Shown here in pieces: positions 456-18,358 of a stretch of DNA of 64,000 nucleotides (the stretch's first letter is position 1; each line of letters starts with the position of its first letter). Source of the stretch: an uncultured Syntrophaceae bacterium. GTDB lineage: Bacteria; Desulfobacterota; Syntrophia; Syntrophales; PHBD01. A program made the position numbers and the translations under genes. The notes under the pieces were generated by a model. That model saw only the letters and a list, made by a program, of their open reading frames with translations. It ran no database searches and was not told the origin of the DNA. The stretch is taken from NCBI GenBank assembly GCA_964578535.1, contig CAZODI010000001.1, forward strand, positions 108,338 through 172,337, given 5' to 3'.

Positions 456-833
456 ATGGCTTCGAAAGCAAAGGGGATCCGCCAGAGCCAGAAGGAGATC
501 TGGCAGAAAAAACTGGATCAGCGATTGGCCGAACTGGCCGCCAGGGGAGTGGAAGGCACCGCTGCGGCAAGGGACGCCGTCGTGCGGTCCCTGAAAGCAA
601 AGGTCCGGGAGGCCGACGGGCGTCTGGCCGCCATTGACGCCAAGGACAAGAAGACCGCCGAAAAGAAGGAGACGAAGGTCCGGAAACTGGCGGAGGCCAA
701 GACTGAGAAGAAGAAGGGGGACGCACCGCCCCCGGTGGAGGAGAAAACCTCCAAGAGCAAGAAGAAGAAAGAGGAAAAGGCGGAGAAGAAAGAAGGCACC
801 GCCAAGGAAAAGAAACCCAAGGCCAAGGAATAA
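456..833 (+). CDS. Lys/Glu-rich small basic protein (hypothetical, histone-H1-like low-complexity tail)
   Basis: 125-aa ORF with GGGAGG 9 nt upstream of the ATG. The C-terminal half is a K/E/A-rich low-complexity tract (KKKKEEKAEKKEGTAKEKKPKAKE). TAATG stop/start overlap with the next gene. Confidence 0.6.
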   Translation: MASKAKGIRQSQKEIWQKKLDQRLAELAARGVEGTAAARDAVVRSLKAKVREADGRLAAIDAKDKKTAEKKETKVRKLAEAKTEKKKGDAPPPVEEKTSKSKKKKEEKAEKKEGTAKEKKPKAKE

Positions 834-1825
834 TGAAGGAAACGTGGACAGCCGGACGCCTCCTGGAGGTGTCCGGCTCCTACTGGCAGACCTGTGCACT
901 CCACACCGGGGTGAAGCTGGGCATCTTCACCGCCCTCGGAAGGAGTTCGCTCCCGGCGGAGGATGTGGCGCAAAAGACGGCGTCCAGCCTGCGCGGAACC
1001 GCTGCACTCCTGAACGCCCTCACCGCCATGGGGCTTCTGGCACGGGACGGCGATCGTTACCGGAACACCGAAGAGTCCTGGACGTATCTTGTGGAGGGGT
1101 CGAAGGAATATATCGGGTACATGATCCTCCACCATCACCACCTGATGGAGTCCTGGGCCAGAATGCCCGCAGCCGTGCGGGGGGGCAGGCCGATCCGGAA
1201 GCGCTCGACGTTCCGGAACCGGGAGGTCCGGGAAAGCTTTCTCATGGGGATGTTCAACCTGGCCAGCCGCCTGGCGCCCAAGATCGTACAGGAAGTCGAT
1301 CTGACAGGACGGAAGCATCTGTTGGACCTGGGCGGAGGGCCGGGAACCTATGCGATTCACTTCTGCCGGCGATATGAGGGGCTCCGGGCTACCGTCTTCG
1401 ATCTCAAGACCACCCGGCCCTTTGCAAGGAAGACCATCCGCCGCTTCGGCATGGAGGACCGTATTGCCTTCCGGGCAGGGAACTACCTGGATGACGACCT
1501 GGGAGAAGGGTACGACGCCGCCTGGCTGTCGCACATCCTGCACGGGGAAGGGCCGGAAGATTGCAGGAAGATCGTCTCCAGGGCGACGGCGGCCCTGGAG
1601 CCGGGAGGTGTTTTGGTCGTCCACGAGTTCATCCTGAACGACACGAAGGACGGGCCCCTGCACCCGGCCCTGTTTTCCCTCAACATGCTCCTGGGGACCC
1701 CCGAGGGGCGCTCCTACTCGGATTCGGAGATCCGGGACATGCTCACCGCCGCGGGCCTCCGGGATGTCTGCCGCCTGCCGTTCCGGGCCCCCAACGACTC
1801 TGGCCTCATCGCCGGCTGGAAATGA
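833..1825 (+). CDS. Class I SAM-dependent O-methyltransferase (family 2, with N-terminal dimerisation/winged-helix region)
   Basis: 330 aa with SAM motif I LLDLGGGPGTY and the downstream acidic VFDL and HILHGEG motifs typical of Methyltransf_2 O-methyltransferases. Confidence 0.8.
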   Translation: MKETWTAGRLLEVSGSYWQTCALHTGVKLGIFTALGRSSLPAEDVAQKTASSLRGTAALLNALTAMGLLARDGDRYRNTEESWTYLVEGSKEYIGYMILHHHHLMESWARMPAAVRGGRPIRKRSTFRNREVRESFLMGMFNLASRLAPKIVQEVDLTGRKHLLDLGGGPGTYAIHFCRRYEGLRATVFDLKTTRPFARKTIRRFGMEDRIAFRAGNYLDDDLGEGYDAAWLSHILHGEGPEDCRKIVSRATAALEPGGVLVVHEFILNDTKDGPLHPALFSLNMLLGTPEGRSYSDSEIRDMLTAAGLRDVCRLPFRAPNDSGLIAGWK

Positions 1826-2155: not shown

Positions 2156-2170
2156 TGGTACGCCTGTTGC
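2156..2170 (+). promoter_or_regulatory. sigma-54 (-24/-12) promoter candidate
   Basis: TGGTACGCCTGTTGC matches TGGCACG-N4-TTGC at 14 of 15 specified/spaced positions with correct GG-to-GC spacing. It lies about 58 nt upstream of ATG 2228 (RBS AGGAGG), and a sigma-54 activator gene lies at the end of the operon. Confidence 0.6.
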
Positions 2171-2227
2171 TCAACGGGAGAGCGCGGCAGTTCATAACCT
2201 CATCAACCCTTTTTCAGGAGGGCAGCC

Positions 2228-3202
2228 ATGGACATCAGCACCGTTTCCGGCGTCGTTTCTTCCGAGAACCTGGGCATGACCCTGATGCACGAACACTTCC
2301 TGTTCGGATTTCCCGGCTGGCAGGGCGACGTCACCATGGGCCCCTTCGACCGGCAGGCCTGCGTGGAGGCCGGCTTGAAGATGGCTGGAAGAGTCATGGA
2401 GCAGGGCGTGAAAACCGTTGTCGACGTCACGCCGAACGAGTGTGGAAGGGATGTGGAGCTGCTCCGGGAAATCTCGGAAAAGAGCGGCCTCAACATTCTC
2501 TGCTCCAGCGGATACTACTTCGAGGGTGAGGGGGCGCCGCCCTATTTCAAGCTGCGGAGCCAGTTCGGGCAGGGTGTGGAGCAGGTGTACGAGATGTTCA
2601 AGACAGAGGTGGAGAAGGGTGTCGGAGCTACCGGCATCCGGCCCGCCGTTTTCAAGGTTGCCTCCGGCAAAGATGCCATCACGGACTACGAGGCGATGTT
2701 CTTCCGGGCGGCCGCCCGGGTCTCGAAGGAGAACGGCATCCCGATCATCACGCATACCCAGGAGGGGAAACTCGGACCCGAGCAGGCCGATCTGCTCATC
2801 GCCGAGGGGGTCGACCCGAAGCGGATCATGATCGGGCATATCGACGGATCGACGGATATGGACTACCTCCTCCGGGTCCTCGAAAAAGGCGTATACATCG
2901 CCTTCGACCGTTTCGGCGTGGAAAATGTCGGCGGAGCGCCGCCGGATTCCCGCAGGGTTGCCTGCCTCATCGGCCTTCTCGGTCTCGGCTGGGCCGATAA
3001 AATCATGATTTCAAACGACTACGTGAATTACTGGCTGGGCCGGCAGGGGGTTTCGGAGATCGTGAGCCTGGTCATGCCGAATTACAACATCACCCACATT
3101 TTCCAGGACATCATCCCGGCGCTGAAGAAGGCCGCTGTCAGCAGCGGGCAGATCGAGACGATGCTGATCGCCAATCCGCGACGGTTCCTTGAGGGAGTCT
3201 GA
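2228..3202 (+). CDS. Phosphotriesterase-family amidohydrolase (phosphotriesterase-like lactonase / PHP type)
   Basis: 324 aa. The binuclear metal ligand set is recognisable: MHEHF (HxH), FKVAS (carboxylated Lys position), ITHTQ, IGHID, ISNDY. Confidence 0.8.
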   Translation: MDISTVSGVVSSENLGMTLMHEHFLFGFPGWQGDVTMGPFDRQACVEAGLKMAGRVMEQGVKTVVDVTPNECGRDVELLREISEKSGLNILCSSGYYFEGEGAPPYFKLRSQFGQGVEQVYEMFKTEVEKGVGATGIRPAVFKVASGKDAITDYEAMFFRAAARVSKENGIPIITHTQEGKLGPEQADLLIAEGVDPKRIMIGHIDGSTDMDYLLRVLEKGVYIAFDRFGVENVGGAPPDSRRVACLIGLLGLGWADKIMISNDYVNYWLGRQGVSEIVSLVMPNYNITHIFQDIIPALKKAAVSSGQIETMLIANPRRFLEGV

Positions 3203-3262: not shown

Positions 3263-4915
3263 ATGCCCGAATACGTGCCGATCACGTTTGAGAAAAACAA
3301 CCTGCTCGAACACCTGACGCAGGTCATCGGGGACTATCCGGAACGGACAGCCGTCGTCACCGCGGATGGAACGGTCCGGAAGACCTACAGGGAGATCGAC
3401 CGCCGCTCGAACCGGCTGGCGCATTATCTTGCCCGGCTCGGCGTCGGCAAGGGCGACCGTGTCGCCATCTTCCAGAACAACGGCTGGCAGTACCCGGAGC
3501 AGTATCTGGCGATCCTCAAGCTCGGCGCGATCTGCGTTCCCATGAACTTCCGCCTGAAGAGTCCCGAGGCACTGTTCATCCTGACGGAATCGGGGGCCAA
3601 GGCGCTGATCCTGGAAAGCCGGTATGCCGCCGTTTTTGAGCCGACCCTCACCTATCAACTGGGGGTGAAGCACTATCTCTGCACCAACGGAGAGGCCCCC
3701 GAATGGGCGGTCGATTACGAGACGGCGCTGGCCGGGGAGCCGGACGAGGCGGTCGAAGCGCCGGATATGACCCTGGACGACGTTCTGGCCATCTGCTTCA
3801 CCAGCGGTACGACGGGCCTCCCCAAGGGCTCCATGGCGACGCACCGGCAGATCATGACGAACTTCTACGGCGAGATGGGGAATCTCATCGAGAGCACCAT
3901 GCATCCGGACCGGGGATATCATGTCGTCATGATGATCATTCCCGTGTACCACATCGCAGGCATCATGACGCTCTATGCGGGCATGAAATTCGGATCCACC
4001 ATCGTCGTATCGTCGGATTTTGCGCCGGAAGGATTCATGCAGACGGTGGAGCGGGAGCAGGTCTCCCTGTGCTACCTGGTGCCGATCATGTTCTTCTTCA
4101 TCCTCCACGATCCCTCCTTCGGGAAGTATGACCTCGGCAGCCTGCGTTTCGTTCCCTACGGCGCGATGCCGATGGACCCCGCCCTCCTCCAGGACATCCT
4201 GAAGAAATTTCCGCCGGGCATCCGCTACATGGACGCCTTCGGCTCGACGGAGGTGTGCATCAACATCGCCAAGCTTCCCGAGGATCACGATCTGACGGGA
4301 TCTCCCGAAGAAGTTGAAAAGAAGATCGCCCGACTGAAGAGCATCGGCCGTCCTTTCCGTTACGGCATCGAGAGCACGATTCTGGATCCCTTCGGCAAGG
4401 AGGTTCCTCCCGGGGTCGTGGGCGAGATCGCCTCCCGGGGCGAGAAAGTGACCGTCGGATACTGGCGGAATGCGGAAGAGACGGCACGGACGATCGACCG
4501 GAACGGCTGGTTCCACACCGGCGACGCCGGATGGATGGACGAAGACGGCTATGTGTACTTCGCCGACCGGGCCAAGGACATGATCAACCGGGGCGGCGAG
4601 AACATCTTCCCCGCCGAGGTCGAGCGCCGGCTCAATCAGCACCCCAGGGTCCTGGAATCGGCCGTCTTCGGCGTTCCCGATCCGGCCTGGGGAGCCCGCG
4701 TCGTGGCGGCCGTCGTCCTGGCGCCGGGACAGACGGCGGAGACGGTGCCCGCGGAGGAGCTCATCGGCTTCTGCAAGGAGCAGATGGCAAGCTACAAGGC
4801 CCCGTCGGCGATCTGGTACATCGACCAGCTCCCCAGGCGGTTCGAGCTCGGCAAGGTGATGCGGTTCGTGCTGCGAGACGAATACATGAAGAAAAGGGAG
4901 GACATTGTTTCATGA
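3263..4915 (+). CDS. AMP-dependent acyl-CoA synthetase/ligase
   Basis: 550 aa with the AMP-binding signature FTSGTTGLPKG, a later GEI..RG...GYW motif and a C-terminal K in the SYKAP region. Confidence 0.9.
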   Translation: MPEYVPITFEKNNLLEHLTQVIGDYPERTAVVTADGTVRKTYREIDRRSNRLAHYLARLGVGKGDRVAIFQNNGWQYPEQYLAILKLGAICVPMNFRLKSPEALFILTESGAKALILESRYAAVFEPTLTYQLGVKHYLCTNGEAPEWAVDYETALAGEPDEAVEAPDMTLDDVLAICFTSGTTGLPKGSMATHRQIMTNFYGEMGNLIESTMHPDRGYHVVMMIIPVYHIAGIMTLYAGMKFGSTIVVSSDFAPEGFMQTVEREQVSLCYLVPIMFFFILHDPSFGKYDLGSLRFVPYGAMPMDPALLQDILKKFPPGIRYMDAFGSTEVCINIAKLPEDHDLTGSPEEVEKKIARLKSIGRPFRYGIESTILDPFGKEVPPGVVGEIASRGEKVTVGYWRNAEETARTIDRNGWFHTGDAGWMDEDGYVYFADRAKDMINRGGENIFPAEVERRLNQHPRVLESAVFGVPDPAWGARVVAAVVLAPGQTAETVPAEELIGFCKEQMASYKAPSAIWYIDQLPRRFELGKVMRFVLRDEYMKKREDIVS

Positions 4916-5946
4916 GGAATATGCTCGACACCCTGTCTTTCCGGGTATCCCCGGAGGACGAATACAACCATCCCGTTGACGATGCGAAGAACTTCAATGA
5001 AAGCATGTATATCAACCTGTTCGATTTCAACCGGGCCATGGGGGGATGGTTTCGTGTGGGAAACCGTCCGAACGAGGGGAACGCGGAGGTCACCTGCTGC
5101 CTGTATCTTCCCGACGGGAGCGTGGGATTCATCTTCAGCCGTCCGAACATCTCGTCGAACGAGTCTCTCAACGCGGCGGGGCTGAAATTCGAGGTCCGGG
5201 AGCCGCTGAAGCGGATCCGGGTCACTTACAGCGGACCGGTGTGCCTCCTGAAGAACCCGCACGAGATGGCGAAACCGATGAAGGCCTTCGCGGAGAATCC
5301 CATTGTCGATTGCTCGGTGGCCCTGGATTTCCAGGCGGTCGGACCGGTCTTCGGCGGTGAGATGGTCAACAAGGATGGCAGTCCTTTCCAGGAGCCTCCG
5401 GAGGAGGCGTTTGCGAAGGCGCATTACGAGCAGCACATGAGCGGTGCAGGAACCATCCGCGTCCAGGAGCATGAATGGAAAATCGACGGCTTCGGACTGC
5501 GGGACCACTCCTGGGGCCCACGGTACTGGCAGAACATCTACTGGTACCGTTGGCTGCCGATGAATTTCGGCCCCGATCTCGGGTTCATGTTCATGATCAT
5601 GGGCAAGGAAGACGGAAACCACCAGATGATGGGGATCATGCTGGAGAACGGCCGGTACGTTCCCTTCCGGGACGTGGAGCTGCAGACGGAGTGGGACGAA
5701 AACTACTATCAGACCGCCCTCAAGGTGAAGGCCAGGACAGACGACAGCGAGCACGAGATCGAGGGGCGGGTCCTGTCCCTCATCCCGCTTCGCAACCGGA
5801 GAAAGAACGAGGCGGGCGACGTGCTCGAGACGCGCATCACCGAGGGGATGACAGAATACCGGTACCGGGGCAGGGTAGGGTACGGAATGTCGGAATACCT
5901 CGACCAGATCATCCACGGCGAACCGGCGGGAAAGGAGAAGGGATGA
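4912..5946 (+). CDS. Uncharacterised conserved protein (344 aa, DHSWGPRYW motif; possible AttH/CrtC-like beta fold)
   Basis: The ORF-track ORF 4531..5946 was trimmed to ATG 4912, which overlaps the ligase stop (ATGA). The N-terminal 127 codons of the long ORF are Arg/Gly-rich overlap with the ligase gene. I recognise no catalytic family with confidence. Confidence 0.7.
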   Translation: MRNMLDTLSFRVSPEDEYNHPVDDAKNFNESMYINLFDFNRAMGGWFRVGNRPNEGNAEVTCCLYLPDGSVGFIFSRPNISSNESLNAAGLKFEVREPLKRIRVTYSGPVCLLKNPHEMAKPMKAFAENPIVDCSVALDFQAVGPVFGGEMVNKDGSPFQEPPEEAFAKAHYEQHMSGAGTIRVQEHEWKIDGFGLRDHSWGPRYWQNIYWYRWLPMNFGPDLGFMFMIMGKEDGNHQMMGIMLENGRYVPFRDVELQTEWDENYYQTALKVKARTDDSEHEIEGRVLSLIPLRNRRKNEAGDVLETRITEGMTEYRYRGRVGYGMSEYLDQIIHGEPAGKEKG

Positions 5947-5947
5947 T

Positions 5948-6941: not shown

Positions 6942-7334
6942 ATGGCTCCATCACGACCGACTGTTTTAGAGCTGCTGGAGGCCGTTCAGGAATTTCTGGA
7001 AAAGAGAATCGTGAAGTCCGTCGATTCGCACCGGGCCTTTCACACGCGGGTCGCCATCAACGCCCTGGCGCTGGTGCGGAGGGAACTCCAGCTGGGTCCG
7101 GGATTCGCAAGCGAGGAACAGGGGCGGCTCCGCTCGCTGCTCGGCATCGAAGGCGGAATTGCGGAACTGAACGACGAATTGTGCCGCCGCCTGCGGAACG
7201 TCGAGCTGGACTGCCGCGAAGGGGATCTTTTCCGACACCTGTTCGAGACGACGATGGCGCAGCTGGCTATTGATAATCCCGAGTACTCCGGGTACCGGAA
7301 AGCCTTGGAGGAATCGACGGGCACGGAAGGCTGA
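6942..7334 (+). CDS. Small helical protein, DUF6285-like partner of APH-type kinases
   Basis: 130 aa starting 1 nt after the kinase stop. The pattern PTVLELLEAVQEFLEKRIV...RVAINALALVRREL matches my recollection of proteins that follow such kinases in actinobacterial clusters. Confidence 0.6.
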   Translation: MAPSRPTVLELLEAVQEFLEKRIVKSVDSHRAFHTRVAINALALVRRELQLGPGFASEEQGRLRSLLGIEGGIAELNDELCRRLRNVELDCREGDLFRHLFETTMAQLAIDNPEYSGYRKALEESTGTEG

Positions 7335-7356: not shown

Positions 7357-9000
7357 TTACGCATTCGCCCTGGAAATGCCGTACCGTGCCATCTTCCGGT
7401 ACAGCGTCGAGCGGGCCATGCCCAGCGAACGGGAAGCGCGGGAGAGGTTCCACTTGCACATCCCGAGGGCGGCCCGGATGCGGCGCCGCTCCCTGGAGTC
7501 GAGCGATTCCGTGTGGCAGCCGCCGGCGATATCCTCCTTGAGGTCCCCGGCTTCGATCACCCGCCCTTCCGAGAAGATGCAGGCCGTCTCGATCGCGTTT
7601 TCCAGTTCCCGCACGTTGCCGGGCCAGGAATAGTCAAGCAGCGCATCCATGGCCCGGCTCGACATCTCCTTCGCTTCCCCTCCGTGTCTGTCGCTCATTT
7701 TCCGGAGGAAATGGCTCACCAGCCGGGGGATGTCCTCCCGGCGCTCCCGCAGGGGCGGGATGTGAAAGGATATCACGTTGAGGCGATGGTACAGGTCGCC
7801 CCGGAACCGTTTTTGTTCCACCATCTCCTTCAAGTCCCGGTTCGTCGAGGCGACGACCTGGACATCGACCCGCTGAGGCCTGCCGCCGCCGAGAGGGATC
7901 ACCGTCTTGTCCTCGATGACCCGCAGCAGATAGGCCTGAAGGTTCATGCTCATTTCGCTGATCTCGTCGAGATAGATGGTTCCGCCCGCCGCCTGTTCGA
8001 AACGGCCCGGGCTTCCCCCCCGCCTGGCTCCCGTGAAGGCCCCCGCTTCATAGCCGAAGAGTTCGCTCGCCGTCAGATCGGGTGGGATGGCCGCACAGTT
8101 GACGGCCACGAAGGGGTGTCGCCGTCGCGGGCTGTTCTCGTGAATGAAGCTTGCCAGAACCTCCTTGCCCACGCCGCTTTCCCCCGTGATCAGCTTGGTC
8201 GAATCGTATTGCGCGGCCTTCCGGGCCTTCCCGAGGAGCCGGCCGATGCCGGCGGAGCCGAATATGAACTCGCAATGCGTCCGGACCCATGCGGACGGGT
8301 CTTCCCCTCCGGGAAAACGGACACCCGCGGCGGTCCTTGCGCCCGCCCGGGGTATGGACGGAAGGGAAGGCCTTGGCGTCCAGTTCGTTCGAACGGCCGG
8401 CTCCGGGGCGTATCTCAGTCTTTCTTCGATCATGCCGGCGATGGACTGCACGATGCCCAGTGCAAATATGTGAAAATGCTTGATGAAACAGGTAAGGCAC
8501 ACGGCTCCGGCGATTTCCCCCGTGAAGGGGTCCCGGATCACCGTTGCCGCATTGGCCGAGTCCTGCCACTGCTTGACGAAATTCTCCTCTCCGATGACAC
8601 AAATGGGTTCACCGGTGGCAAGAGAGGTTCCGATCGCGTTGGTTCCGATGTATTCCTCGCTGCAGCTTGTTCCGATATTGAAGCCGCAGCGCATCCCGCT
8701 CTCGGACCACCGGTCGTTTCCCGTGCCGGCGACGATGACGGCCTTCTCGTCGGCGATGGCCACCACGAAGCGCGACAGTTCGAGCATGGGGTGGAATTTT
8801 TCCAGGATGGGCGTTGCCGCGTCGACAAGTCTCCTCACCTGCTGGGACCGGTCGTTGATGTATTCTTTGCTGAATGTGACGGGAGCTTGCTTGATGTCCT
8901 GATTGATGCCGACGGCGATGCTCCTCTCCAGGGAACAATCAATCTGCCGACGAAACATGCGCCTCAGGTACGGCATGGTGTCCCGAACTGTCACGGACAT
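7357..9000 (-). CDS. sigma-54-dependent transcriptional activator, AcoR-type GAF sensor + AAA+ + Fis-type HTH
   Basis: Motifs seen: Walker A GESGVGKE, the GAFTGA loop (YEAGAFTGA), GTNAIGTSL in the sensor domain, and a C-terminal HTH (RSTLYRKMARYGI). Start set at ATG 9000 (MSVTV...), preceded by AGGGGGA; the longer ORF to 9177 has no RBS. Confidence 0.85.
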   Translation of the reverse strand: MSVTVRDTMPYLRRMFRRQIDCSLERSIAVGINQDIKQAPVTFSKEYINDRSQQVRRLVDAATPILEKFHPMLELSRFVVAIADEKAVIVAGTGNDRWSESGMRCGFNIGTSCSEEYIGTNAIGTSLATGEPICVIGEENFVKQWQDSANAATVIRDPFTGEIAGAVCLTCFIKHFHIFALGIVQSIAGMIEERLRYAPEPAVRTNWTPRPSLPSIPRAGARTAAGVRFPGGEDPSAWVRTHCEFIFGSAGIGRLLGKARKAAQYDSTKLITGESGVGKEVLASFIHENSPRRRHPFVAVNCAAIPPDLTASELFGYEAGAFTGARRGGSPGRFEQAAGGTIYLDEISEMSMNLQAYLLRVIEDKTVIPLGGGRPQRVDVQVVASTNRDLKEMVEQKRFRGDLYHRLNVISFHIPPLRERREDIPRLVSHFLRKMSDRHGGEAKEMSSRAMDALLDYSWPGNVRELENAIETACIFSEGRVIEAGDLKEDIAGGCHTESLDSRERRRIRAALGMCKWNLSRASRSLGMARSTLYRKMARYGISRANA

Positions 9001-9130
9001 AGGATGTTCCCCCTTTGGTCTCTGCGATTCGCGTCCCGGATATGGCAGGGGATGCCGCTCCATGCCGGCGCCGCTCTCATGGTTTTGCTTCCGTCGGCTG
9101 GAAGACTGTAAATGCCCTGGAAGTGAAAAG

Positions 9131-9697
9131 TCAAGGAGCTGCCGAACCGGCAATCTGAGGATCTCCGAGCACGACAAGGGCGTCCACCGCGACGGGGAGA
9201 TCGCCTTGAATGATCAGGGGATTGATGTCGATTTCGGCGATCTCCGTGATCTCCAGCCCGATCCTGCTCAGGTTCCGGAGAATCTCCGCCAGCCGGTCCC
9301 GGTTGACAGCCGGCTCCCCCCGGAACGGTTCCAGGAGCCTCCAGGCCCTGATCTCGGCGATCATTTCCAGGGCATCTTCGAGATCGAGGGGCGCGGTCCG
9401 GAATGCGACGTCCCCGAGCGCCTCCGTGAAGATCCCGCCGAGGCCGAACATGACGCACGGCCCGAGCTGCGGGTCCCGGATCAGGCCGGCGACGAACTCC
9501 CTCTTCCCCCGGATCATCTGCTGAACGAGAATGCCGTCGATCCGGCCTTTCCCGCGCTCCTCCATGGAGGCATAGGTCTCATCCAGAGCCTTTTCATCGC
9601 GGATGTCGAACGCGACCATGGTCACGATCGACTCGCTGGCCGCGCCGCTCTGGCCCAGGATCCCAATCGTCCCGGGGAGGCGGTGTCTTTCGCGGGG
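9131..9697 (-). pseudogene. Remnant of an ADP-forming acyl/acetyl-CoA synthetase family gene (internally deleted, N-terminally truncated)
   Basis: The 164-aa ORF matches only the C-terminal part of the ATP-grasp domain. The 25 codons upstream in the same frame read PGTIGILGQSGAASESIV, which resembles the SucD-type CoA-ligase motif PGxIGIVSxSGTL and normally lies hundreds of residues away. That frame runs directly into the stop codon of the caspase gene. Confidence 0.5.
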
Positions 9698-12600
9698 TTA
9701 CTGCCGCCGCACGACGTAGACGGATATGTCCTTGCCGAAATGGTTGATCACCGGCGTCTGCGTGTGGCCGGACTCTTTCGAATATCTTGCCGTACGCTCC
9801 CTGGCGTAGGCTCCCAGTTCGCGGATGCTCACCCGGCTGTCCCCGTCCGCATCGGCTGCCCGATTGTTGTCCAGTCCCTCCAGAAGGCTGTACGTGAAGA
9901 CCCCGTTCCTGCCCCGGTAGCCGTCCAGCGCCGCCTGCGTGGAGCTTGCCGATGCGAACATGTGCAGGCCCATGTTCCTCGCCATGACGGTCATTCGTGC
10001 ATCGTAAAGCCCGCTCACAAAGCGGTCGAGGCCGCCCGCGTGACAGGTGTCGAGAATGTAGATCTGCGTCAGTGACTTGATGTTCTTTGAAATTTCCATG
10101 ATCTCGTTTGAGCTGAGGAGGCTGCCACTGTCGAGCGTGCCGTTGTAGTCGTGGGTGACGATGGAGTAGAGGCCCGATTGAATGACCCCGTGGCTGGCCA
10201 TGAAGAGCACGAATACGTCGCCGGGTTTTACGGTCCGGGACAGCTCATGGATCCTGTCCTGAATGTTCCTCTTGGTCGCGTCGCCGTTGATCAGCGAGCT
10301 GATATGGATGTTTTCGCGACGGTATTGTGTCCGCGACTGCTCCTGAATTCTCCTGGCGAAGCTCTCCGCGTCCTTGACGGCGAACCGGAGATTGCTTTCC
10401 CGGGATTTGAATTCGTCGATCCCGACGGCCAGGATGTACATGCGGGGATCATCCGCCTTGAGGGTGGATCGGAACGTGGCCGTCTTCAGGATGCTCTGCA
10501 CGGAATTGCTCCTGTTGAAGGCCGCGAGGCTGACGTCGTTTTCTCCCGGGATGGCGTCCACGGTGATCGATCCTTCGTACACGTCGCCTTTCGGCACGGT
10601 TCTCATGAGGCCCAACCCGCTTTCCTGCCTGGCGACGAGGTTGATGCTGCGCAGGTCCTCCCGGATGGCCCGCGCGTTGTAGGAAAGAAGGGTCGCATTG
10701 CCTGCCGGTGCCGCCTTTGCCTGCCGGTAAAAACCGTCGGACTGGATGAGCTTGCCGTTGTGGAACAGGCGGACCTCGCCGATTCCGCCGCCGGCAGCCG
10801 TGATTCTGTAGCCGATGGTGACTTTTGTCTCCGCGGTTTCCTTCGGAACGCTCTGGAACGCAACCTGAGGCGGAGGATTTCGGAGGGCTTCCTCGATGTT
10901 CGTCGCATCCAGCGCGGCGGTGTCCTCACCCTTCAGTTTCGCCTCCACGATGTCAGGCCTGTAGAAGACATCGTAGAATTGCTCGAGGCCGAACACCCGG
11001 TTGCCCTGCCTGACATTGAGGAACGCGGGGCCATACCTGGACCCCTTGAAGGGACCCTCCGGAGTGATGACAACCCAGTCGTCGTCCATCAGACTGATGA
11101 ATTGGGCGATCTCCCTGCCGTTGGAAACGTCCCAGAGGCGGATCGTGCTGTCCCCGCCGCTGCCGTGATAGGAAATGGGCCGTATTCCAACGCCGCTCGC
11201 GGAAAGAACGTGCCGTCCGTCCGGATGGAAGGCCACGGAATTGACATTGCCCGTATGCCCCCGGAACGTCCTGATCTCGGAGCCGGTCACCGCATCCCAG
11301 AGCTTCAGGGTGGTGTCCTCGCTTCCCGATAGCACCTGCCGTCCGTCCGGGCTGAACGCCACGGACGTGACCCAGTCCGTGTGACCCCGGAATGTCCGGA
11401 TCTCCTTGCCGCTTTTGGCGTCCCAGAGCCTCAGGGTCCTGTCCAGGCCTCCCCCTCCGGACAGGATCTGCCGGCCGTCGGGGCTGAACGCCACGGCATG
11501 CACGAAATCCGAATGTCCTTTCATGATGACCGGCTCCCCGCCGGAGGCCAGATCCCGGAGCTTCAGAACGTAGTCCTCTCCCGCCGACACGGCGAACCGG
11601 CCGTCCGGGCTGAAGGCCTGAACGGCCATAGAGCCGGTTTTAACCTTGAAGGTTCGAATTTCCCGGCCGCTTTGCACGTCCCAGAGCCGCTGGGTGTCGT
11701 CCAGGCCCGTCGAAAGGGCCCGCTGCTTCCCGTCCGGGCTGAATAAAACGGAATTGATGCCCTTGGAGTGCCCCTTGAAGACCCGGATCTCACGGCCCGT
11801 CTTCACGTCCCAGAGCCGGATGGTCGTGTCTTCGCTTCCCGACAGGGCGAGCCTTCCGTCGGGGCTGAACGTCGTGGCGGTAACGGGGCCGGAATGTCCC
11901 GTGAACTTCCTGATCTCGACACCGCCGGCCAGATCCCAGAGCTTCAGGGTACGATCCGGGCCTCCCGACAGTGCAAGGCTTCCGTCCGGGCTGAAGGCCG
12001 TGCATGCCGCCTCTCGTGCAAATCCGATGAACACCTGCAATCGCCTGCCGTCGGCCGCGTCCCAGAGCAGCACGGCAAAATCGGCGCCGCCCGACAGGAT
12101 CTGCCGGCCGTCGGGGCTGAAGACGGCGGAGTGGACCCGGAAGGAATGCCCCTTGAACGTTCTCAACACGTTTCCGTCGGCATCCCAGAGCTTCAGGGTG
12201 TTGTCGAAGCTGCCGGACAGGAGTTGCCGGCCGTCCGGGCTGAACGCAACCGTCTGCACCCAGTCCGAGTGACCCCTGAACACCCGGATCTGCCGGCCGC
12301 TGGATGCATCCCAGAGCCTCATCGTTTTGTCGATGCTCCCCGAGAGGATGTACCGTCCGTCCGGGCTGAACGCCGCGGACCTCACCTCGTCGGAATGCCC
12401 CGTGAAGACCTTCATCTCACGGCCGCTGTAAGCATCCCGGAGCGTCAGGGTGTTGCTGAGACCGATGGACAGAACGGATCGGTGATCCGGACTGAGGGCG
12501 ACGACATCGCGCGAGTATCCCTGGATTTTCCCGATCTCCGCGCCGGTGGCGATGTCCCAGCGTGTCAGCGTGCCGTTCACGCTTCCCGCCAGGGCGTGCC

Positions 12601-13021
12601 TGCCGTCGGGGCTGAAGGCGGCGAAGGTGATCCAGTCGGCGCGGAACGTCCTGAGGGGCGCGCCGCTTGCCATGTCCCAGAGCCTCAGGGTATTGTCCCT
12701 GCTTCCCGACAGGGCGTACTTTCCGTCGGGGCTGAAGGCCACGGACGTGACCCAGTTCCGGTGTCCCCTGAAGGTCCTGATCTCCATGCCGCTGGACACT
12801 TCCCAGAGCTTCAGGACGTAATCTTCGCCCCCCGAGAGGGCATACCGGCCGTCCGGGCTGAAGGCCACGGCGTTCACTTTTCCCGAGTGCCCCATCTGTA
12901 CGAAAATGTCCGGCCTTTCATCGGCGGAGACGGCCTCCTCCGGCATCGCCCATGCCAGCACGGCGGCAAGCAGCAGGAGGATCAAGGGTCCGGTTCCCGT
13001 CCTGAAATCCGCAGATTTCAT
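9698..13021 (-). CDS. Secreted WD40-repeat (14 blades) protein with C-terminal peptidase C14 (caspase/orthocaspase) domain
   Basis: Start set at ATG 13021 (MKSADFRTGTGPLILLLLAAVLAWA, a signal peptide; AGGAAG RBS). There are 14 repeats of the form AFSPDGRxxLSGSxDxTLxLWD. The C-terminal domain has the His (FMASHGV) and Cys (ILDTCHAGG) dyad motifs. Confidence 0.85.
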   Translation of the reverse strand: MKSADFRTGTGPLILLLLAAVLAWAMPEEAVSADERPDIFVQMGHSGKVNAVAFSPDGRYALSGGEDYVLKLWEVSSGMEIRTFRGHRNWVTSVAFSPDGKYALSGSRDNTLRLWDMASGAPLRTFRADWITFAAFSPDGRHALAGSVNGTLTRWDIATGAEIGKIQGYSRDVVALSPDHRSVLSIGLSNTLTLRDAYSGREMKVFTGHSDEVRSAAFSPDGRYILSGSIDKTMRLWDASSGRQIRVFRGHSDWVQTVAFSPDGRQLLSGSFDNTLKLWDADGNVLRTFKGHSFRVHSAVFSPDGRQILSGGADFAVLLWDAADGRRLQVFIGFAREAACTAFSPDGSLALSGGPDRTLKLWDLAGGVEIRKFTGHSGPVTATTFSPDGRLALSGSEDTTIRLWDVKTGREIRVFKGHSKGINSVLFSPDGKQRALSTGLDDTQRLWDVQSGREIRTFKVKTGSMAVQAFSPDGRFAVSAGEDYVLKLRDLASGGEPVIMKGHSDFVHAVAFSPDGRQILSGGGGLDRTLRLWDAKSGKEIRTFRGHTDWVTSVAFSPDGRQVLSGSEDTTLKLWDAVTGSEIRTFRGHTGNVNSVAFHPDGRHVLSASGVGIRPISYHGSGGDSTIRLWDVSNGREIAQFISLMDDDWVVITPEGPFKGSRYGPAFLNVRQGNRVFGLEQFYDVFYRPDIVEAKLKGEDTAALDATNIEEALRNPPPQVAFQSVPKETAETKVTIGYRITAAGGGIGEVRLFHNGKLIQSDGFYRQAKAAPAGNATLLSYNARAIREDLRSINLVARQESGLGLMRTVPKGDVYEGSITVDAIPGENDVSLAAFNRSNSVQSILKTATFRSTLKADDPRMYILAVGIDEFKSRESNLRFAVKDAESFARRIQEQSRTQYRRENIHISSLINGDATKRNIQDRIHELSRTVKPGDVFVLFMASHGVIQSGLYSIVTHDYNGTLDSGSLLSSNEIMEISKNIKSLTQIYILDTCHAGGLDRFVSGLYDARMTVMARNMGLHMFASASSTQAALDGYRGRNGVFTYSLLEGLDNNRAADADGDSRVSIRELGAYARERTARYSKESGHTQTPVINHFGKDISVYVVRRQ

Positions 13022-13064
13022 ATGTCCGCTTCCTTTCCAGATACCGGCCGGGCCGGCGAAGGTT

Positions 13065-13496
13065 CTACAGCAGCAGGATGATATCGACAATGATCATCCC
13101 GATCAGCGCGATTCCGGCCAGAAAATTCAGGACTTCACTCATCCACCCCAGGCGCTGGACCCAGAGCCCGCCGAAGATGCCCAGGATATAACCCGCCAGC
13201 GCCCCGGCCAGCCCGCACAGCAGCCGTACCCCGTAAGCCGTCTTGTATGCGTGTCCGGTTCCCAGCCCCGCCGTGAATCCGAGAAAAACCAGAAAGAAAA
13301 AGATGCCCACGCGGAAGTCGTCAAAGGACGGCTTGATCCCCGCGTGAGAACGGATTCCGTGGACAACCAGAAACAGGACACCGCCCGTTCCCGCCAGGGC
13401 GAAGATCCAGCCGAGGATGGAACCCTTTCCCAGTGCCTCGGCGTACCCGGTGACGGAGGCCACGAGCGAGACTGCCAGGAGGATCGACAGTTCCAT
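13065..13496 (-). CDS. Small integral membrane protein (about 4 TM), hypothetical
   Basis: Trimmed to MELSILLAVSLVASV... The sequence is hydrophobic and Gly-rich with helix-like segments. It is co-oriented with and 43 nt upstream of the WD40-caspase gene. Confidence 0.5.
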   Translation of the reverse strand: MELSILLAVSLVASVTGYAEALGKGSILGWIFALAGTGGVLFLVVHGIRSHAGIKPSFDDFRVGIFFFLVFLGFTAGLGTGHAYKTAYGVRLLCGLAGALAGYILGIFGGLWVQRLGWMSEVLNFLAGIALIGMIIVDIILLL

Positions 13497-14774: not shown

Positions 14775-15161
14775 ATGGGCGGCTTATTGGACGATCTCCG
14801 GAAGTTTTTCAGGAAGGGCCGTGCACAGGAACGGTTCTCGGTGACGGGCACAGCCATGGTCATCGTTGCCCCGGGTGAAGATGGGGAAAGGAAGGTGCGG
14901 ATTCTGGACATCAGCAAGGGAGGTTTGGCTTTCATTTATGATGGACCGAAGGAAAAACTGGTAGAATCGGGAATCATTCAGCTTCTTGCGAATAACGTAG
15001 TATTTGTGGACAAGGTTCAATTCGACACGGCTTATGACATTCCCCTGCAGGAAACAGAAGGTCAATATCGCCGCCGTGGGGTGAAATTCAGGTTCATGGG
15101 GATCTTGGATGACACCAAACTGGACTCTTTTATTAGAGAAATCAAGTCATTCGAATTGTAG
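14775..15161 (+). CDS. PilZ domain protein (c-di-GMP receptor family)
   Basis: 128 aa with an RxxxR-like region (RAQERF) and a D/NxSxxG motif (ILDISKGGLAF). Confidence 0.65.
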   Translation: MGGLLDDLRKFFRKGRAQERFSVTGTAMVIVAPGEDGERKVRILDISKGGLAFIYDGPKEKLVESGIIQLLANNVVFVDKVQFDTAYDIPLQETEGQYRRRGVKFRFMGILDDTKLDSFIREIKSFEL

Positions 15162-15253
15162 TTCAGATTTGTCGTTCGATTCTTTTGCGCATACCGGCCA
15201 GGTACATATCCGGGAACAACAAGCAAGAGGGAATTTCATGTCTTGAGCATCTG

Positions 15254-16195
15254 TCAGGCATGGAGCCCGCGCATCTTGATTTTTTCTACGATCCCTCCCC
15301 GTCTCAATAAGGAAGTAAATTCTTCATGGCTGATGACCTGTTTCAGGTATTCTATGTTGTTGTTGATGCTTTCTATATATAAATCATGATCGATTCCCCA
15401 CCTCACTTGAAAGTGTGACTTCATGTGCTTATGGACGCTTCCAAGGTCATATTCCAGCCGATTTAGTGTAGCATGATAAAACTGGAGAGTCTTCAAGAGC
15501 AGATCATATTCATTTTCATAATCGGCAATGCCCGCTTCCTTGAATTCATAATAAAGAAAGAGGAGTTTTTCGAGATAAAGACGATCGGCCATCTGTCCCA
15601 AAAGGTCTGCCGCACCGAGAATATTGCCAGCCGTTGCAACCTCTTGGTTGAGAAATCGTATTTCGTTGATTCTTTCGGTGAACCCTGTGCAAAGGAGGAT
15701 ATCACGGAATGTTTTCGATTCGTCAGCGAAACGGGGATGACCGGCAAAGTAATGGTTACAGAAATCGATGCTTCTCAGGATATGATCAATCGTATATTTT
15801 GCACCGGTACCGCTTGTATCATCGAGGGTTTGATTATAACCCGTATCGTGCATCAGCGCGCTGATGATGTCGATGTTGATCATTTTTTCTGAAAGTGGTT
15901 GATGATCGACAAAAGCACCATGAATCAGTCGTGCCGTCGCCAGAAATACTTCCATTGTATGACGCAAGTCATGGTATTCCGTGTTGCATGCCTGATATCC
16001 CGGATAACTGCCCTCAAAGAGCCTTATGATGTCTTCGAATACACGCGAGATTTCCCTTATCGAAAAAGAAGGGTCGATGCTGTGCAGAATGATTTCGACC
16101 TCATGAAATACACTTTCCGGATCGTTCATATCAACGAGGCCGATCAGTTTTTGTGTGCTGTTTTCCATTATTCCAATATTTTTCCTGCCATTCAT
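15254..16195 (-). CDS. HD-domain metal-dependent phosphohydrolase family protein
   Basis: 313 aa with H...HD...D signature residues (YHDLRHTMEV, ALMHDTGY). The gene is low in GC. Confidence 0.6.
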   Translation of the reverse strand: MNGRKNIGIMENSTQKLIGLVDMNDPESVFHEVEIILHSIDPSFSIREISRVFEDIIRLFEGSYPGYQACNTEYHDLRHTMEVFLATARLIHGAFVDHQPLSEKMINIDIISALMHDTGYNQTLDDTSGTGAKYTIDHILRSIDFCNHYFAGHPRFADESKTFRDILLCTGFTERINEIRFLNQEVATAGNILGAADLLGQMADRLYLEKLLFLYYEFKEAGIADYENEYDLLLKTLQFYHATLNRLEYDLGSVHKHMKSHFQVRWGIDHDLYIESINNNIEYLKQVISHEEFTSLLRRGGIVEKIKMRGLHA

Positions 16196-16798
16196 CGCCC
16201 AAACATCGTCGCGGGATGAATGGCATCTCCTGGGGAGTGAGGATGGAGGAAACTGAAATTCTCCTGATTGTTTATGCCGTCAGGTTCTATGCTGGATATG
16301 AGTCCTCCGGGTGGCACCTGACGCTCGGTGCAGAGAGCAGTTGCCCTGGCACAAGCGGAAAGAATTGACCGTTTCTGTCGGATCCCGAACGGGGTTGCCC
16401 GCCTGTTTTGAAGAGGGACGTTGGGACGAATATTCGGAGCGTTATACACTCTTCATCTGCGACGCCGCTGAAAAACCTCCCTTACCGTATTGGTAATCAG
16501 TCTATATCGATGGAGAAAAAAAGCACAATATACCGAAGGGTTTATTTTTCTATGCTTTTCGGTATAGATTGGGGCATGTTGAGTTCTCCCCCACGGAAAA
16601 TGGATCGGTTTCTGTGGGGCAGGTCTGTCAATATCAATAGATTCCAAATATTAAACAGCAGGAAGTGTGGTGGGCAATCGGATCGGAACAATCCCTGAAC
16701 AATGGAGCTTTTTAAATCGTCTATGCTCCAATTGAATCTGAAATCAATTACTCTAAGCAGCTGATGAAAAATTATGGACGTTTTTTAGTTGAATACCG

Positions 16799-17290
16799 CT
16801 ATTTGGCATAGAGTTTTTGAACCAAGTCGGGAAGTCGTTTAAGTAATTTATCTTCCTTCCCGAGATTGGTACGGATCGAACCTTGTGAGAGGATTGTCAT
16901 TACCTGCAAGTCCATCACTCTTGAATGAACAATGATGGCACTACCTATGATCCCAAGATTGCCTGTGATCATTTGATTGGCTATTAGCTACTTCCCGACC
17001 GGCAGGGCCTTTTGATCATCGCTCAATCCCGCCTTCTGAAGCTTCATCTCCTGGATAGCATGAATAATGTCCGCTCTGTTGATTAAGTCAAATTTGGCTG
17101 AGTTTAAGAACTCTTCACGAAGAGCTTCGGATAGAATCAACACCACATTATCCAATCGGGAGGACGAAGACAGGTCATGAATGACCAACCGTTGTCTTGA
17201 TACGGTCTTTTCATTTCTTTTTCCTGTCTCCATCTGTTGCATATGAGTTTTATCTGCCGCAACTGTTTGCTGGTTCTTCATGTTTTGCAC
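16799..17290 (-). pseudogene. CsgG/LpoB-like periplasmic protein gene interrupted by an in-frame TAG and lacking a signal peptide
   Basis: The ORF 16988..17290 (RLVIHDLSS...FDLINRADIIHAIQEMKLQKAGL...VGK) stops at TAG. The same frame continues as LIANQMITGNLGIIGSAIIVHSRVMDLQVMTIL... to TAG 16799, reproducing the family pattern GKxLGAxxVVTGxxxxLGxxxxIxxRxxDxxTGxI. Confidence 0.5.
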
Positions 17291-17333
17291 TGCGCACGCT
17301 TAGCGATCGGCTGTGTTGCTTTTGTTGGGTAAA

Positions 17334-17831
17334 TCATTTCTGAGGAATAACCGCAACAGCATCGATCTCAACAAGAAAATCGGGGTGTGCCAATGCAGGA
17401 ACAAAGATTGCGCTAATGACGGGTGGATTCGGACGTTGGCCCCACACCTTTTGAAAAGCTTCGAATCCGGTTTGTGCCGATTGGCCATGAAGGATATAAA
17501 CGTTCCACTTTACGACGTGTTGAAGTCCTGCCCCGCCTGCCGCCAGAGCTGTTTCCAAATTCTGTAGCGCCTTTTCCGTTTGCGCTCTCATGTCGCCTTT
17601 CCCGACAATTTTGCCAGAAGCATCCACGGCATTCTGGCCACCGACATAGATTGTCGTTGTATTGCCGCTGACGACAATAGCCTGAGTATATGCGGGATTC
17701 TTGTGCAGGCCCGCCGGATTGAGATGCTGCACATTTCTATTCACTTGCATTTGCGCCTCCTTTGGTGCGAGAGCCTGACAGCCCAAGATTAATACTGCGG
17801 ATACGATCACTACCAATCGATGCACTGTCAT
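17334..17831 (-). CDS. RidA/YjgF/Endoribonuclease L-PSP family protein with lipoprotein-type signal peptide
   Basis: 165 aa. The N-terminus MTVHRLVVIVSAVLILGCQ has a lipobox-like LILGC, and the remainder matches the RidA fold pattern (IYVGGQ...GDMRAQTEKALQNLE...VEIDAVA). Confidence 0.7.
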   Translation of the reverse strand: MTVHRLVVIVSAVLILGCQALAPKEAQMQVNRNVQHLNPAGLHKNPAYTQAIVVSGNTTTIYVGGQNAVDASGKIVGKGDMRAQTEKALQNLETALAAGGAGLQHVVKWNVYILHGQSAQTGFEAFQKVWGQRPNPPVISAIFVPALAHPDFLVEIDAVAVIPQK

Positions 17832-17974
17832 TCTTCTACCCCCAACGACGAGGTGAGCCGGAGCAGCGCCCCTGGTGTTGCGATCGGCTCTACCAATTTG
17901 TTCTCTTAAGATGGCATATCATTGAAATATTTATCGCTTAGCAGTACATACTCAAGCCATCTTAATGTCAACAA

Positions 17975-18253
17975 TTGATTTCCTGGTTGATCTTTGGCAT
18001 AAGGCCTGCCGTGCAGTCGGGGAAGACATTGATATGTACTCCGGACTTAAAACATTCGTCGTGCTCCCAATACGTCAACGAGAAAGGGTTGTCGGTTGAC
18101 GAGCTCCAAATCATCACTGATCACGCACGAAAGGAAAGTGTGTTTAAGTATGCAGCTGTCCAGGCGGAAGCAAAGCGGAAAATAATGACAAGAGGGGGCA
18201 AGTTTGGGGACAGTCGGGGTACAGAGAAAAAGGCGGATGAATGCAGATATTAA
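17975..18253 (+). pseudogene. Tyrosine recombinase (phage integrase family) C-terminal remnant
   Basis: TPDLKHSSCSQYVNEKGLSVDELQIITDHARKESVFKYA aligns to the integrase pattern tpHdLRHsfaSxlvxxGxsxxxlqxllGHxsxxxtxxYa, with R->K and G->D substitutions. There is no N-terminal part, and it ends 8 nt from the selC 3' end. Confidence 0.5.
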
Positions 18254-18260
18254 TGAAAAA

Positions 18261-18358
18261 TGGCGGAAGTGCATGGGAATCGAACCCACCTGAGAGGTGT
18301 CTAGCCCCTCACTCCGGATTTGAAGTCCGGGAGGCCCACCAGTGACCTTGGCACTTCC
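18261..18358 (-). tRNA. selC: tRNA-Sec (anticodon UCA)
   Basis: The reverse complement reads GGAAGTGC-CA-AGGTC..GGCCT-..CCGGA-CTTCAAA-TCCGG-long variable arm (GAGGGG..CCTCTC)-GTGGG-TTCGATT-CCCAT-GCACTTCC-G-CCA. It has the 8-bp acceptor stem, long extra arm and UCA anticodon typical of bacterial selC, and is very similar in layout to E. coli selC. Confidence 0.9.

Follow-up and report, generated by a model that had tools for sequence, protein, structure and literature searches.

A DUF7065/DUF7064 protein encoded between an acyl-CoA ligase and an APH-family kinase in a Syntrophaceae genome: a predicted phosphate-eliminating lyase related to 25-phosphosteroid lyase

Introduction

What reaction might a protein perform when its gene is wedged between those of an acyl-CoA ligase and a small-molecule kinase? 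The question is raised by a gene, here called X, in a stretch of 64,000 nucleotides (the window) from an uncultured Syntrophaceae bacterium (GenBank assembly GCA_964578535.1, contig CAZODI010000001.1, positions 108,338 to 172,337 of the forward strand). A first-pass annotation, made from the sequence alone, assigned X to no catalytic family and named it as the prime candidate for a phosphate elimination or hydration missing from the operon. Of these two, elimination is the better supported by the sequence comparisons reported here: the closest solved relative of X, by fold and by profile, is a phosphate lyase, the 25-phosphosteroid lyase (25-PSL) of Sterolibacterium denitrificans, and the 64 kb encode no other candidate for the step. 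We propose, with moderate confidence, that X eliminates phosphate from a hydroxyacyl product phosphorylated by the adjacent APH-family kinase and its DUF6285 partner, doing the job that falls elsewhere to LvaC or to the acyl-CoA dehydrogenase (ACAD) enzymes ACAD10 and ACAD11.

Gene X and its family

4912 to 5946, plus strand: X, a DUF7065 plus DUF7064 protein of 344 residues, folded as an AttH-like double beta-barrel; predicted C-O lyase eliminating phosphate

The mechanically called open reading frame (ORF) of X reaches back to 4531. Homologues are 339-348 residues long and their alignment starts at about residue 8, for which reason we take 4912 as the right start; a GGGAGG Shine-Dalgarno sequence lies 10 nt 5' of this ATG. 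The start codon (4912-4914) overlaps the TGA of the ligase gene (4913-4915) as ATGA, while the stop codon of X (TGA, 5944-5946) is parted from the kinase ATG at 5948 by a single T at 5947. These junctions are as the first-pass annotation described them, and they suggest translational coupling of X with both the ligase and the kinase. The product has neither a signal peptide nor a membrane segment.

The protein consists of DUF7065 followed, from N- to C-terminus, by DUF7064, both over their Pfam gathering thresholds (58.6 bits with a cutoff of 27, and 104.5 bits with a cutoff of 24.7 over residues 205-332), and both domains are present in all 120 homologues listed. No Pfam CrtC or lipocalin-like model matched X at E≤0.01, and Pfam found no ACAD domain (PF02771, PF02770, PF00441) in it. 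The central region matches the NCBIfam Rv3169 family weakly (E 7e-11); since the score of 41.7 bits is far under the 150-bit cutoff, X falls outside that family. The Rv3169 family, made up of mycobacterial conserved hypothetical proteins, is itself uncharacterised; in the mycobacterium M. branderi an X-like gene comes after one for an APH protein.

Homologues of X form 5388 clusters at 90% identity, and at 50% identity the family comes down to 1541 representatives. At least 588 species-level genomes contain relatives, among them those of Syntrophaceae, SAR86, Parvibaculum, Binatia, Acidimicrobiia, Caulobacteraceae, Cupriavidus and mycobacteria, and the nearest one (97%) comes from a Syntrophaceae metagenome-assembled genome (MAG). 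Judged by such sequence comparisons, X is a real gene under selection. The database names of the homologues listed are all "hypothetical protein"; we found no paper on DUF7064, DUF7065 or DUF6285, and Rv3169, judged by title, appears in lists of single-nucleotide polymorphisms or expression data only. No published function was found for DUF7065/DUF7064.

Fold and homology to 25-PSL

An AlphaFold2 model of X, built with 52 homologues, has a predicted local distance difference test score (pLDDT) of 93.3 and a predicted template modelling score (pTM) of 0.91. It is almost wholly beta, with 24 strands and three short helices, as had been predicted from the sequence. Comparison of the model with the PDB by Foldseek gave chains of 25-PSL as the top five matches (entries 9g4c, 9fzn and 9g2i; E 7e-15 to 2e-14, probability 1.00, template modelling (TM) score 0.58-0.64). 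Next came the fungal Diels-Alderases CghA, Fsa2 and Phm7 (E 3e-10 to ~4e-8, TM ~0.5, identity 10-12%), and further matches were AttH (2ich; E 2e-9, TM 0.61-0.66) and kievitone hydratase (7a0t; E 7e-9). Nothing else in the PDB search was significant, and no unrelated structural or transport family emerged from it.

The AttH/CrtC-like fold that the first-pass annotation suggested for this protein is borne out by the matches to 2ich and kievitone hydratase; the CrtC model of Pfam is not matched.

Sequence-level searches point the same way. An X-family profile run against PDB sequences with hmmsearch found 25-PSL at E 1.2e-7 in three collinear segments; AttH (2ich) reached only E 0.21-1.1 in sequence or profile searches of the PDB, and the Diels-Alderases gave no signal in either the single-sequence or the profile search. 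Matches of single-sequence phmmer to Tic12 and the RuBisCO small subunit were dismissed as being at chance level, the profile and fold searches agreeing on 25-PSL. For a comparison of families, 25-PSL was represented by a Sterolibacterium MAG protein, 94% identical to a 90-residue query fragment of 25-PSL and, at 362 residues, of the length of the PDB chain; its family alignment used 24 of the 79 relatives recovered. Alignment of the two families by hhalign gave 97.6% probability, E 4e-12 and 201 columns.

By these profile comparisons X is remotely homologous to 25-PSL. The latter scores 16.5 bits with the DUF7065 model, under the 27-bit threshold, and X is thus placed in a sister family of 25-PSL and not as its orthologue. 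The two share a two-domain beta-barrel fold; X has an insertion at residues ~107-130 and is without two insertions seen in 25-PSL.

The central motif and other conserved residues

5494 to 5529, plus strand: motif GLRDHSWGPRYW, residues 195-206 of X; Asp198, between Arg197 and Arg204, is putatively catalytic

In the alignments the central motif is the most conserved block of the superfamily. Residues GLRDHSWGPR (195-204) of X align with GSRDRSWGVR of 25-PSL (G173-R182), whereas the product-complex entry 9g4c, which contains phosphate and desmost-1,4-diene-3-one, reads GSRNRSWGVR: the change is D176N, at the position aligned with Asp198 of X. The roles of 25-PSL residues are taken here from the deposited sequences and entry titles. 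Because the depositors changed exactly the aligned Asp, a catalytic role is indicated for Asp198, and we call this residue putatively catalytic on the strength of the 9g4c variant.

Asp198 is kept in 72 of 76 X-family representatives, and R197, D198, S200, W201, G202 and R204 are each kept in 69-75 of them. Taken together with the central-motif residues, D16, H20, E30, S31, Y33, R48, R52, E59, H171, W206 and R213 are each found in 65-75 of the 76, members fused to kinases included. The motif Arg-Asp-x-Ser-Trp-Gly-x-Arg is retained alike in kinase-linked and kinase-less members, and its Asp and both flanking Arg are invariant in the aligned relatives of 25-PSL. AttH keeps the Asp and the Trp, but where the two arginines would stand it has Leu and Glu, which fits a phosphate-binding role of these arginines specific to the X and 25-PSL branches; from this we infer such a role for Arg197 and Arg204. 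The earlier suggestion that DHxWG is an AttH/CrtC motif is upheld in so far as the region aligns weakly with AttH, and fails as a signature, AttH preserving only the Asp and the Trp (LDREW).

Further elements are common to X and 25-PSL: an N-terminal D-[DE]-Y...H; NFNES.Y.N in X, corresponding to NFYDRYYFN; G.RPN.G, corresponding to GQYPN.G; and, besides the central G-x-R-D-x-S-W-G-x-R, a C-terminal GYGM.E. X probably shares the active site of 25-PSL. The X family has extra invariant arginines at R48, R52 and R213, where 25-PSL differs (R48 and R52 are aligned with Gly/Tyr).

The operon around X

2156 to 2171, plus strand: sigma-54-type promoter-like element TGGTACGCCTGTTGCT, 57 nt 5' of the lactonase start, one mismatch to TGGCAC-N5-TTGCW
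2228 to 3202, plus strand: phosphotriesterase-like lactonase (PLL), Pfam phosphotriesterase (PTE) E 7e-58; predicted gamma/delta-alkyl-lactone hydrolase yielding a hydroxy acid
3263 to 4915, plus strand: acyl-CoA ligase of fatty-acid type, 550 residues, Pfam AMP-binding and AMP-binding_C; NCBIfam PRK06187, 442 bits
5948 to 6940, plus strand: APH-family small-molecule kinase, 330 residues, Pfam APH E 2e-36; member of the ACAD10/11-kinase-like clade associated with DUF6285
6942 to 7334, plus strand: DUF6285 small protein, Pfam E 4e-29; probable accessory subunit of the kinase
7357 to 9177, minus strand: sigma-54-dependent activator (GAF sensor, AAA+, HTH_8, from Pfam), convergent with the operon

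The operon genes are tightly packed. The first of them has phmmer matches of E ~1e-106 to GsP (3f4c), GkL (3orw/3ojg) and Dr0930 (3fdk), and its HxH metal motif (MHEH) is visible; proteins of this type act as lactonases, and in nature their substrates are gamma/delta-lactones that carry alkyl chains of medium length (PMC3468530). The ligase has fatty-acyl and feruloyl-CoA synthetases and FadD5/FadD13 as its best PDB relatives. The kinase, with HGDFRNGN and DWE catalytic motifs intact, finds its best PDB matches in 3dxp (E 4e-15), an APH domain deposited as "putative acyl-CoA dehydrogenase", and in the ACAD11 kinase domain (8v3v, E 3.5e-8), and it is 41-45% identical to ACAD-linked APH proteins of Thermus, Variovorax and Cupriavidus. 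By synteny and the 12-kDa size described for LvaB, the DUF6285 protein may be the equivalent of that small kinase partner.

The element TGGTACGCCTGTTGCT is one of only two sigma-54-type sites with one mismatch in the window, where the total of matches is not above chance; it is called promoter-like because of its place in a 400-nt intergenic gap and the adjacent sigma-54 activator. From this adjacency and the promoter type, the activator is the probable regulator of the operon. A second sigma-54 activator paralogue, at 33629-34648 on the plus strand, is 40% identical to the AAA+/HTH part of the operon-side regulator.

Searches of the whole window found no homologue of ACAD, crotonase, MaoC, histidine-phosphatase or Variovorax-type short-chain dehydrogenase/reductase (SDR) queries. 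There being no ACAD or other candidate eliminating enzyme in the 64 kb, X is the only candidate in the locus for processing the product of the kinase. An O-methyltransferase upstream (833-1825, plus strand; Methyltransf_2 with a dimerisation domain) was considered as part of the system by analogy with CrtC/CrtF and set aside, since the 400-nt promoter-containing gap separates it from the operon and other loci do not keep such a gene beside X. CrtF is of this broad family too, and its pathway partner CrtC has the AttH fold, which is probably a coincidence.

Linkage of X to kinases across genomes

The distribution of neighbours was followed in the 80 best species-level loci, which are those most similar to the query and not a random sample, and of which only 66 have at least 1.2 kb of sequence 3' of X; the statistics come from tblastn, Pfam scans of called neighbours and deposited annotations. 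An APH gene on the same strand starts within 250 nt after X in 26 of the 80 loci, spread over several phyla, and one is found anywhere within 6 kb of X in 29; DUF6285 is present in 25. For comparison, of 80 loci with relatives of 25-PSL, eight have an APH gene within ~6 kb, and in four of them it is directly adjacent.

Gene order varies, with X-APH-DUF6285, APH-X and APH-small ORF-ligase-ACAD-X all represented, the last in Sulfitobacter; Pseudonocardia has small ORF-APH-X, Novosphingobium an overlapping APH-X pair, and M. branderi APH-X-ligase-ACAD-ACAD. In Cupriavidus metallidurans CH34 the order on one strand is ACAD-ACAD-ligase-APH1-DUF6285-(unassigned ~1.3 kb)-SDR-APH2-X-ECH-MaoC, where ECH stands for enoyl-CoA hydratase. 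This cluster (locus L168) lies at 2,260,000-2,282,000 of the chromid NC_007974.2, with the ligase, APH, DUF6285 and X genes at ~2,266,800-2,278,000; PLSDB gives no annotation for the stretch; CH34 is a cultivable model organism, convenient for genetics.

APH and X also occur as single proteins of 520-784 residues, whose N-terminal part is an APH region and whose C-terminal part is an X domain. In at least five of these the APH region is near-complete; P0164, P0167, P0184, P0238 and P0225 are 611-784 residues long, and P0163 and P0190 look N-terminally truncated. Their kinase domain belongs to a clade other than that of the window kinase and is closest to CH34 APH2, which stands beside X. The tight coupling of X to ligase and kinase claimed by the first-pass annotation from this one locus is accordingly supported on three counts, in the gene overlaps, in the 26 loci with APH right after X and in the fusions, and linkage of X to kinase genes is seen across genomes.

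Three APH clades supply the kinases found beside genes for X or 25-PSL-type proteins. The first, associated with DUF6285 and including the window kinase, also adjoins ACAD genes in Thermus pTT27, Variovorax and CH34, and DUF6285 always follows an APH gene of this clade; the second is that of CH34 APH2 and the fusions, and the third adjoins the relatives of 25-PSL.

Other recurrent neighbours are ligases, enoyl-CoA hydratases/isomerases, SDRs and thiolases, together with several families able to act as lactonases (PTE, SMP-30, metallo-beta-lactamase and dienelactone hydrolase); cytochrome P450 and luciferase-like monooxygenase genes recur next to kinase-less X genes. In deltaproteobacterial-type loci (L084/L085, 8001-10065, and L002, 3195-5056) X is followed directly by a PTE-family lactonase with no kinase nearby, which suggests a lactonase-X link independent of an adjacent kinase; in L084/L085 a DUF2889 gene precedes X. 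In L086/L087 (5180-9038) X lies downstream of His_Phos_1-ACAD-TetR and beside genes for 2-hydroxyacyl-CoA dehydratase (HGD-D/BcrAD) and electron-transfer flavoprotein, and the pair of histidine phosphatase and ACAD there is reminiscent of lva-like clusters (Pseudomonas citronellolis and Thermus pTT27).

A proposed pathway and its precedents

We envisage the following order of steps. The PLL would open an alkyl gamma/delta-lactone to a hydroxy fatty acid, which the ligase would convert to the hydroxyacyl-CoA; the kinase with DUF6285 would then phosphorylate the hydroxyl group, as LvaAB and the kinase domains of ACAD10/11 do, and X would take off the phosphate to leave an enoyl-CoA for beta-oxidation. 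Kinase and X together would amount to an ATP-dependent dehydration of an alcohol, with X working independently of a cofactor and thus doing without flavin the step of LvaC or of the ACAD domains of ACAD10/11. In the active site Asp198 would serve as the base, and Arg197 and Arg204 would hold the leaving phosphate. Lyase activity and these residue roles are predictions, as are the substrate as a CoA thioester, the position of its hydroxyl group and that of the double bond in the product; what the analysis shows is the fold, the relationship to 25-PSL, the conserved motif, the make-up of the operon and the link to kinases.

Two known systems share parts of this logic. In the first, 25-PSL is partnered with an APH-family kinase, 25-hydroxysteroid kinase (25-HSK), and the kinase acts before the lyase (PMC8449060). 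No candidate lyase gene was found near the kinase gene of S. denitrificans (PMC8449060), whereas X is adjacent or even fused to a kinase. The settings differ too: that of X is lactonase, ligase and beta-oxidation, while that of 25-PSL comprises Mo-hydroxylase and steroid genes, none of which were found in the window.

In the second, the kinase domains of ACAD10/11 and the bacterial LvaA, acting with the 12-kDa LvaB, phosphorylate 4-hydroxyacyl-CoAs, from which an ACAD-type enzyme then removes the phosphate (PMC12440821, PMC11342911, PMC6692424). LvaAB and LvaC of the levulinate operon of Pseudomonas putida and the mammalian ACAD10 and ACAD11 thus follow the same course, from CoA ligase to APH-type kinase (with a small partner in bacteria) to phosphate removal giving an enoyl-CoA, and the APH-X fusions mirror the APH-ACAD fusion of ACAD10/11. 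The eliminating enzyme of that group is an FAD-containing ACAD homologue. X, with neither an ACAD domain nor a nucleotide-binding fold, is therefore not a member of the LvaC/ACAD10/11 family and would need a different, non-redox mechanism, and a different double-bond isomer is possible from it. By analogy X would be a functional counterpart of that group. The X locus would then combine the logic of 25-HSK and 25-PSL with an Lva-like pathway for hydroxy acids or lactones, on a substrate that likely differs from that of 25-PSL.

Several points weigh against the proposed elimination from a phosphohydroxyacyl-CoA. The identity of X to 25-PSL is only ~16-25%, and the C-terminal half aligns poorly. 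Phosphate elimination from unactivated secondary carbons usually needs transient oxidation. The reaction of ACAD10/11 on a secondary 4-phosphoester is flavin-dependent (PMC11342911), and the substrate of 25-PSL is a tertiary phosphoester whose group-transfer potential is very high (PMC8449060); for these reasons a secondary 4-phosphoacyl-CoA would not necessarily undergo elimination without a cofactor. X may in fact act on a tertiary or allylic substrate, or its product may be a 3-enoyl-CoA which is then shifted by a crotonase-family isomerase; the frequency of ECH as a neighbour would agree with such a shift. In about two thirds of the 80 loci there is no kinase within 6 kb of X, and hence some members may act without phosphorylation or with a distant kinase. 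Finally, the clusters that contain X in Sulfitobacter, Variovorax, Cupriavidus and M. branderi also encode an ACAD. In view of this coexistence we rejected the idea that X is a strict replacement of the LvaC-type ACAD everywhere; for the window it still holds.

Alternative explanations

The rival that survives best, although we think it unlikely, is that X is a lyase of 25-PSL type with a non-CoA substrate. The kinase would phosphorylate a free tertiary or allylic alcohol (isoprenoid-, steroid- or hydroxy-acid-like) and X would make the alkene, the ligase acting earlier or later, as in the anaerobic degradation of the cholesterol side chain. The only characterised relative, 25-PSL, acts on just such a non-CoA tertiary phosphoester, and chemistry favours tertiary or allylic phosphates; the kinase-X pair of Novosphingobium, moreover, lies with P450 and hydrolase genes and no CoA genes nearby, and P450 and luciferase-like monooxygenases recur where X has no kinase. 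What speaks for a CoA thioester is the window kinase, whose nearest relatives among solved APH proteins are 3dxp and the ACAD11-type acyl-CoA kinase domain (E 3.5e-8), its DUF6285 partner, typical of ACAD-linked clusters, and the prevalence of ligase, ECH, SDR and thiolase among the neighbours of X. The extra invariant R48, R52 and R213 also fit a more anionic substrate.

Somewhat less credible is a cofactor-independent hydratase or dehydratase like CrtC or kievitone hydratase, with a separate role for the adjacent kinase. AttH (NE1406, 2ich), CrtC and kievitone hydratase share the fold of X (E 2e-9 to 6e-8, TM up to 0.66) and add or remove water without phosphorylation; the roughly two thirds of loci that have no adjacent kinase would be accommodated, as would the SDR-X-ECH-MaoC arrays, in which hydration chemistry is expected. 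The fold and profile scores of 25-PSL are nevertheless 5-6 orders of magnitude better than those of the hydratases, the Arg-Asp motif of 25-PSL is kept even in kinase-less X while AttH is without the arginines, and the APH-X fusions are hard to explain by independent action.

It is improbable that X uses phosphate as the leaving group for a cyclisation, isomerisation or pericyclic reaction, in the manner of the decalin-forming Diels-Alderases. CghA, Fsa2 and Phm7 are the second-best structural matches and have the same fold, but the similarity is lower (TM ~0.5, identity 10-12%) with no sequence-level signal; they serve secondary metabolism in eukaryotes and carry out no phosphate chemistry, and the surroundings of X point to catabolism by beta-oxidation and not to the making of polyketides. 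A non-catalytic role in lipid binding or in association with transport, as first proposed for AttH of the AttEFGH transporter, would suit the resemblance to 2ich and is the least credible of all, given the absence of a signal peptide or membrane segment from X and of transporter genes from the operon, the dense invariant polar residues (Asp, His, Glu, Arg) and the fusion to kinases.

Other features of the window

A tRNA-Sec gene lies at 18261-18358 on the minus strand (Rfam 73.8 bits; anticodon TCA by ARAGORN). It is adjoined by a ~3-kb island of low GC content at 15000-18000 (0.44-0.48, as against ~0.62 elsewhere), which could be an insertion next to the tRNA gene and holds an ORF of 313 residues (15254-16195, minus strand) with no Pfam match. 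At 9698-13090 on the minus strand a protein of 1130 residues combines a hydrophobic segment at its N-terminus with WD40 repeats in a long array (Pfam WD40, 9 stretches); a caspase-like ...DTCHAGG... was seen by eye in its C-terminal region, and the whole resembles the bacterial WD40-caspase (metacaspase-like) architecture. An unusual fusion of 629 residues (23676-25565, minus strand) joins an HMGL-like TIM-barrel (residues 60-333) to Cache/PDC sensor domains (residues 489-599).

Implications for the family

The proposal that X eliminates phosphate gives a testable function to a very large DUF family, which counts thousands of clusters and is present in bacteria abundant in the sea and in soil, with mycobacterial relatives as well. 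Taken further, and here we are tentative, since the joint reading is possible rather than probable, the DUF7065/DUF7064 proteins would be widespread flavin-independent phospho(hydroxy)acyl-CoA lyases. Paired with kinases of LvaAB type, they would give 4-hydroxy acids and gamma-lactones a second, non-homologous way into beta-oxidation, replacing the ACAD10/11/LvaC step and workable in strict anaerobes, the Syntrophaceae bacterium of the window among them; kinase and AttH-fold lyase would be a modular device for "ATP-dependent dehydration", assembled repeatedly with three APH clades.

If true, dehydration by a kinase and an AttH-fold lyase, so far known from one step of anaerobic cholesterol degradation, would be general and modular, and bacteria would possess a flavin-free alternative to LvaC, ACAD10 and ACAD11 for 4-hydroxy fatty acids entering beta-oxidation. 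The acids concerned would be lipid-peroxidation products, lactone aroma compounds and levulinate-derived acids; the annotation of hydroxy-acid and lactone catabolism would be improved, and a new enzyme would be at hand for engineering the use of levulinate or lactones.

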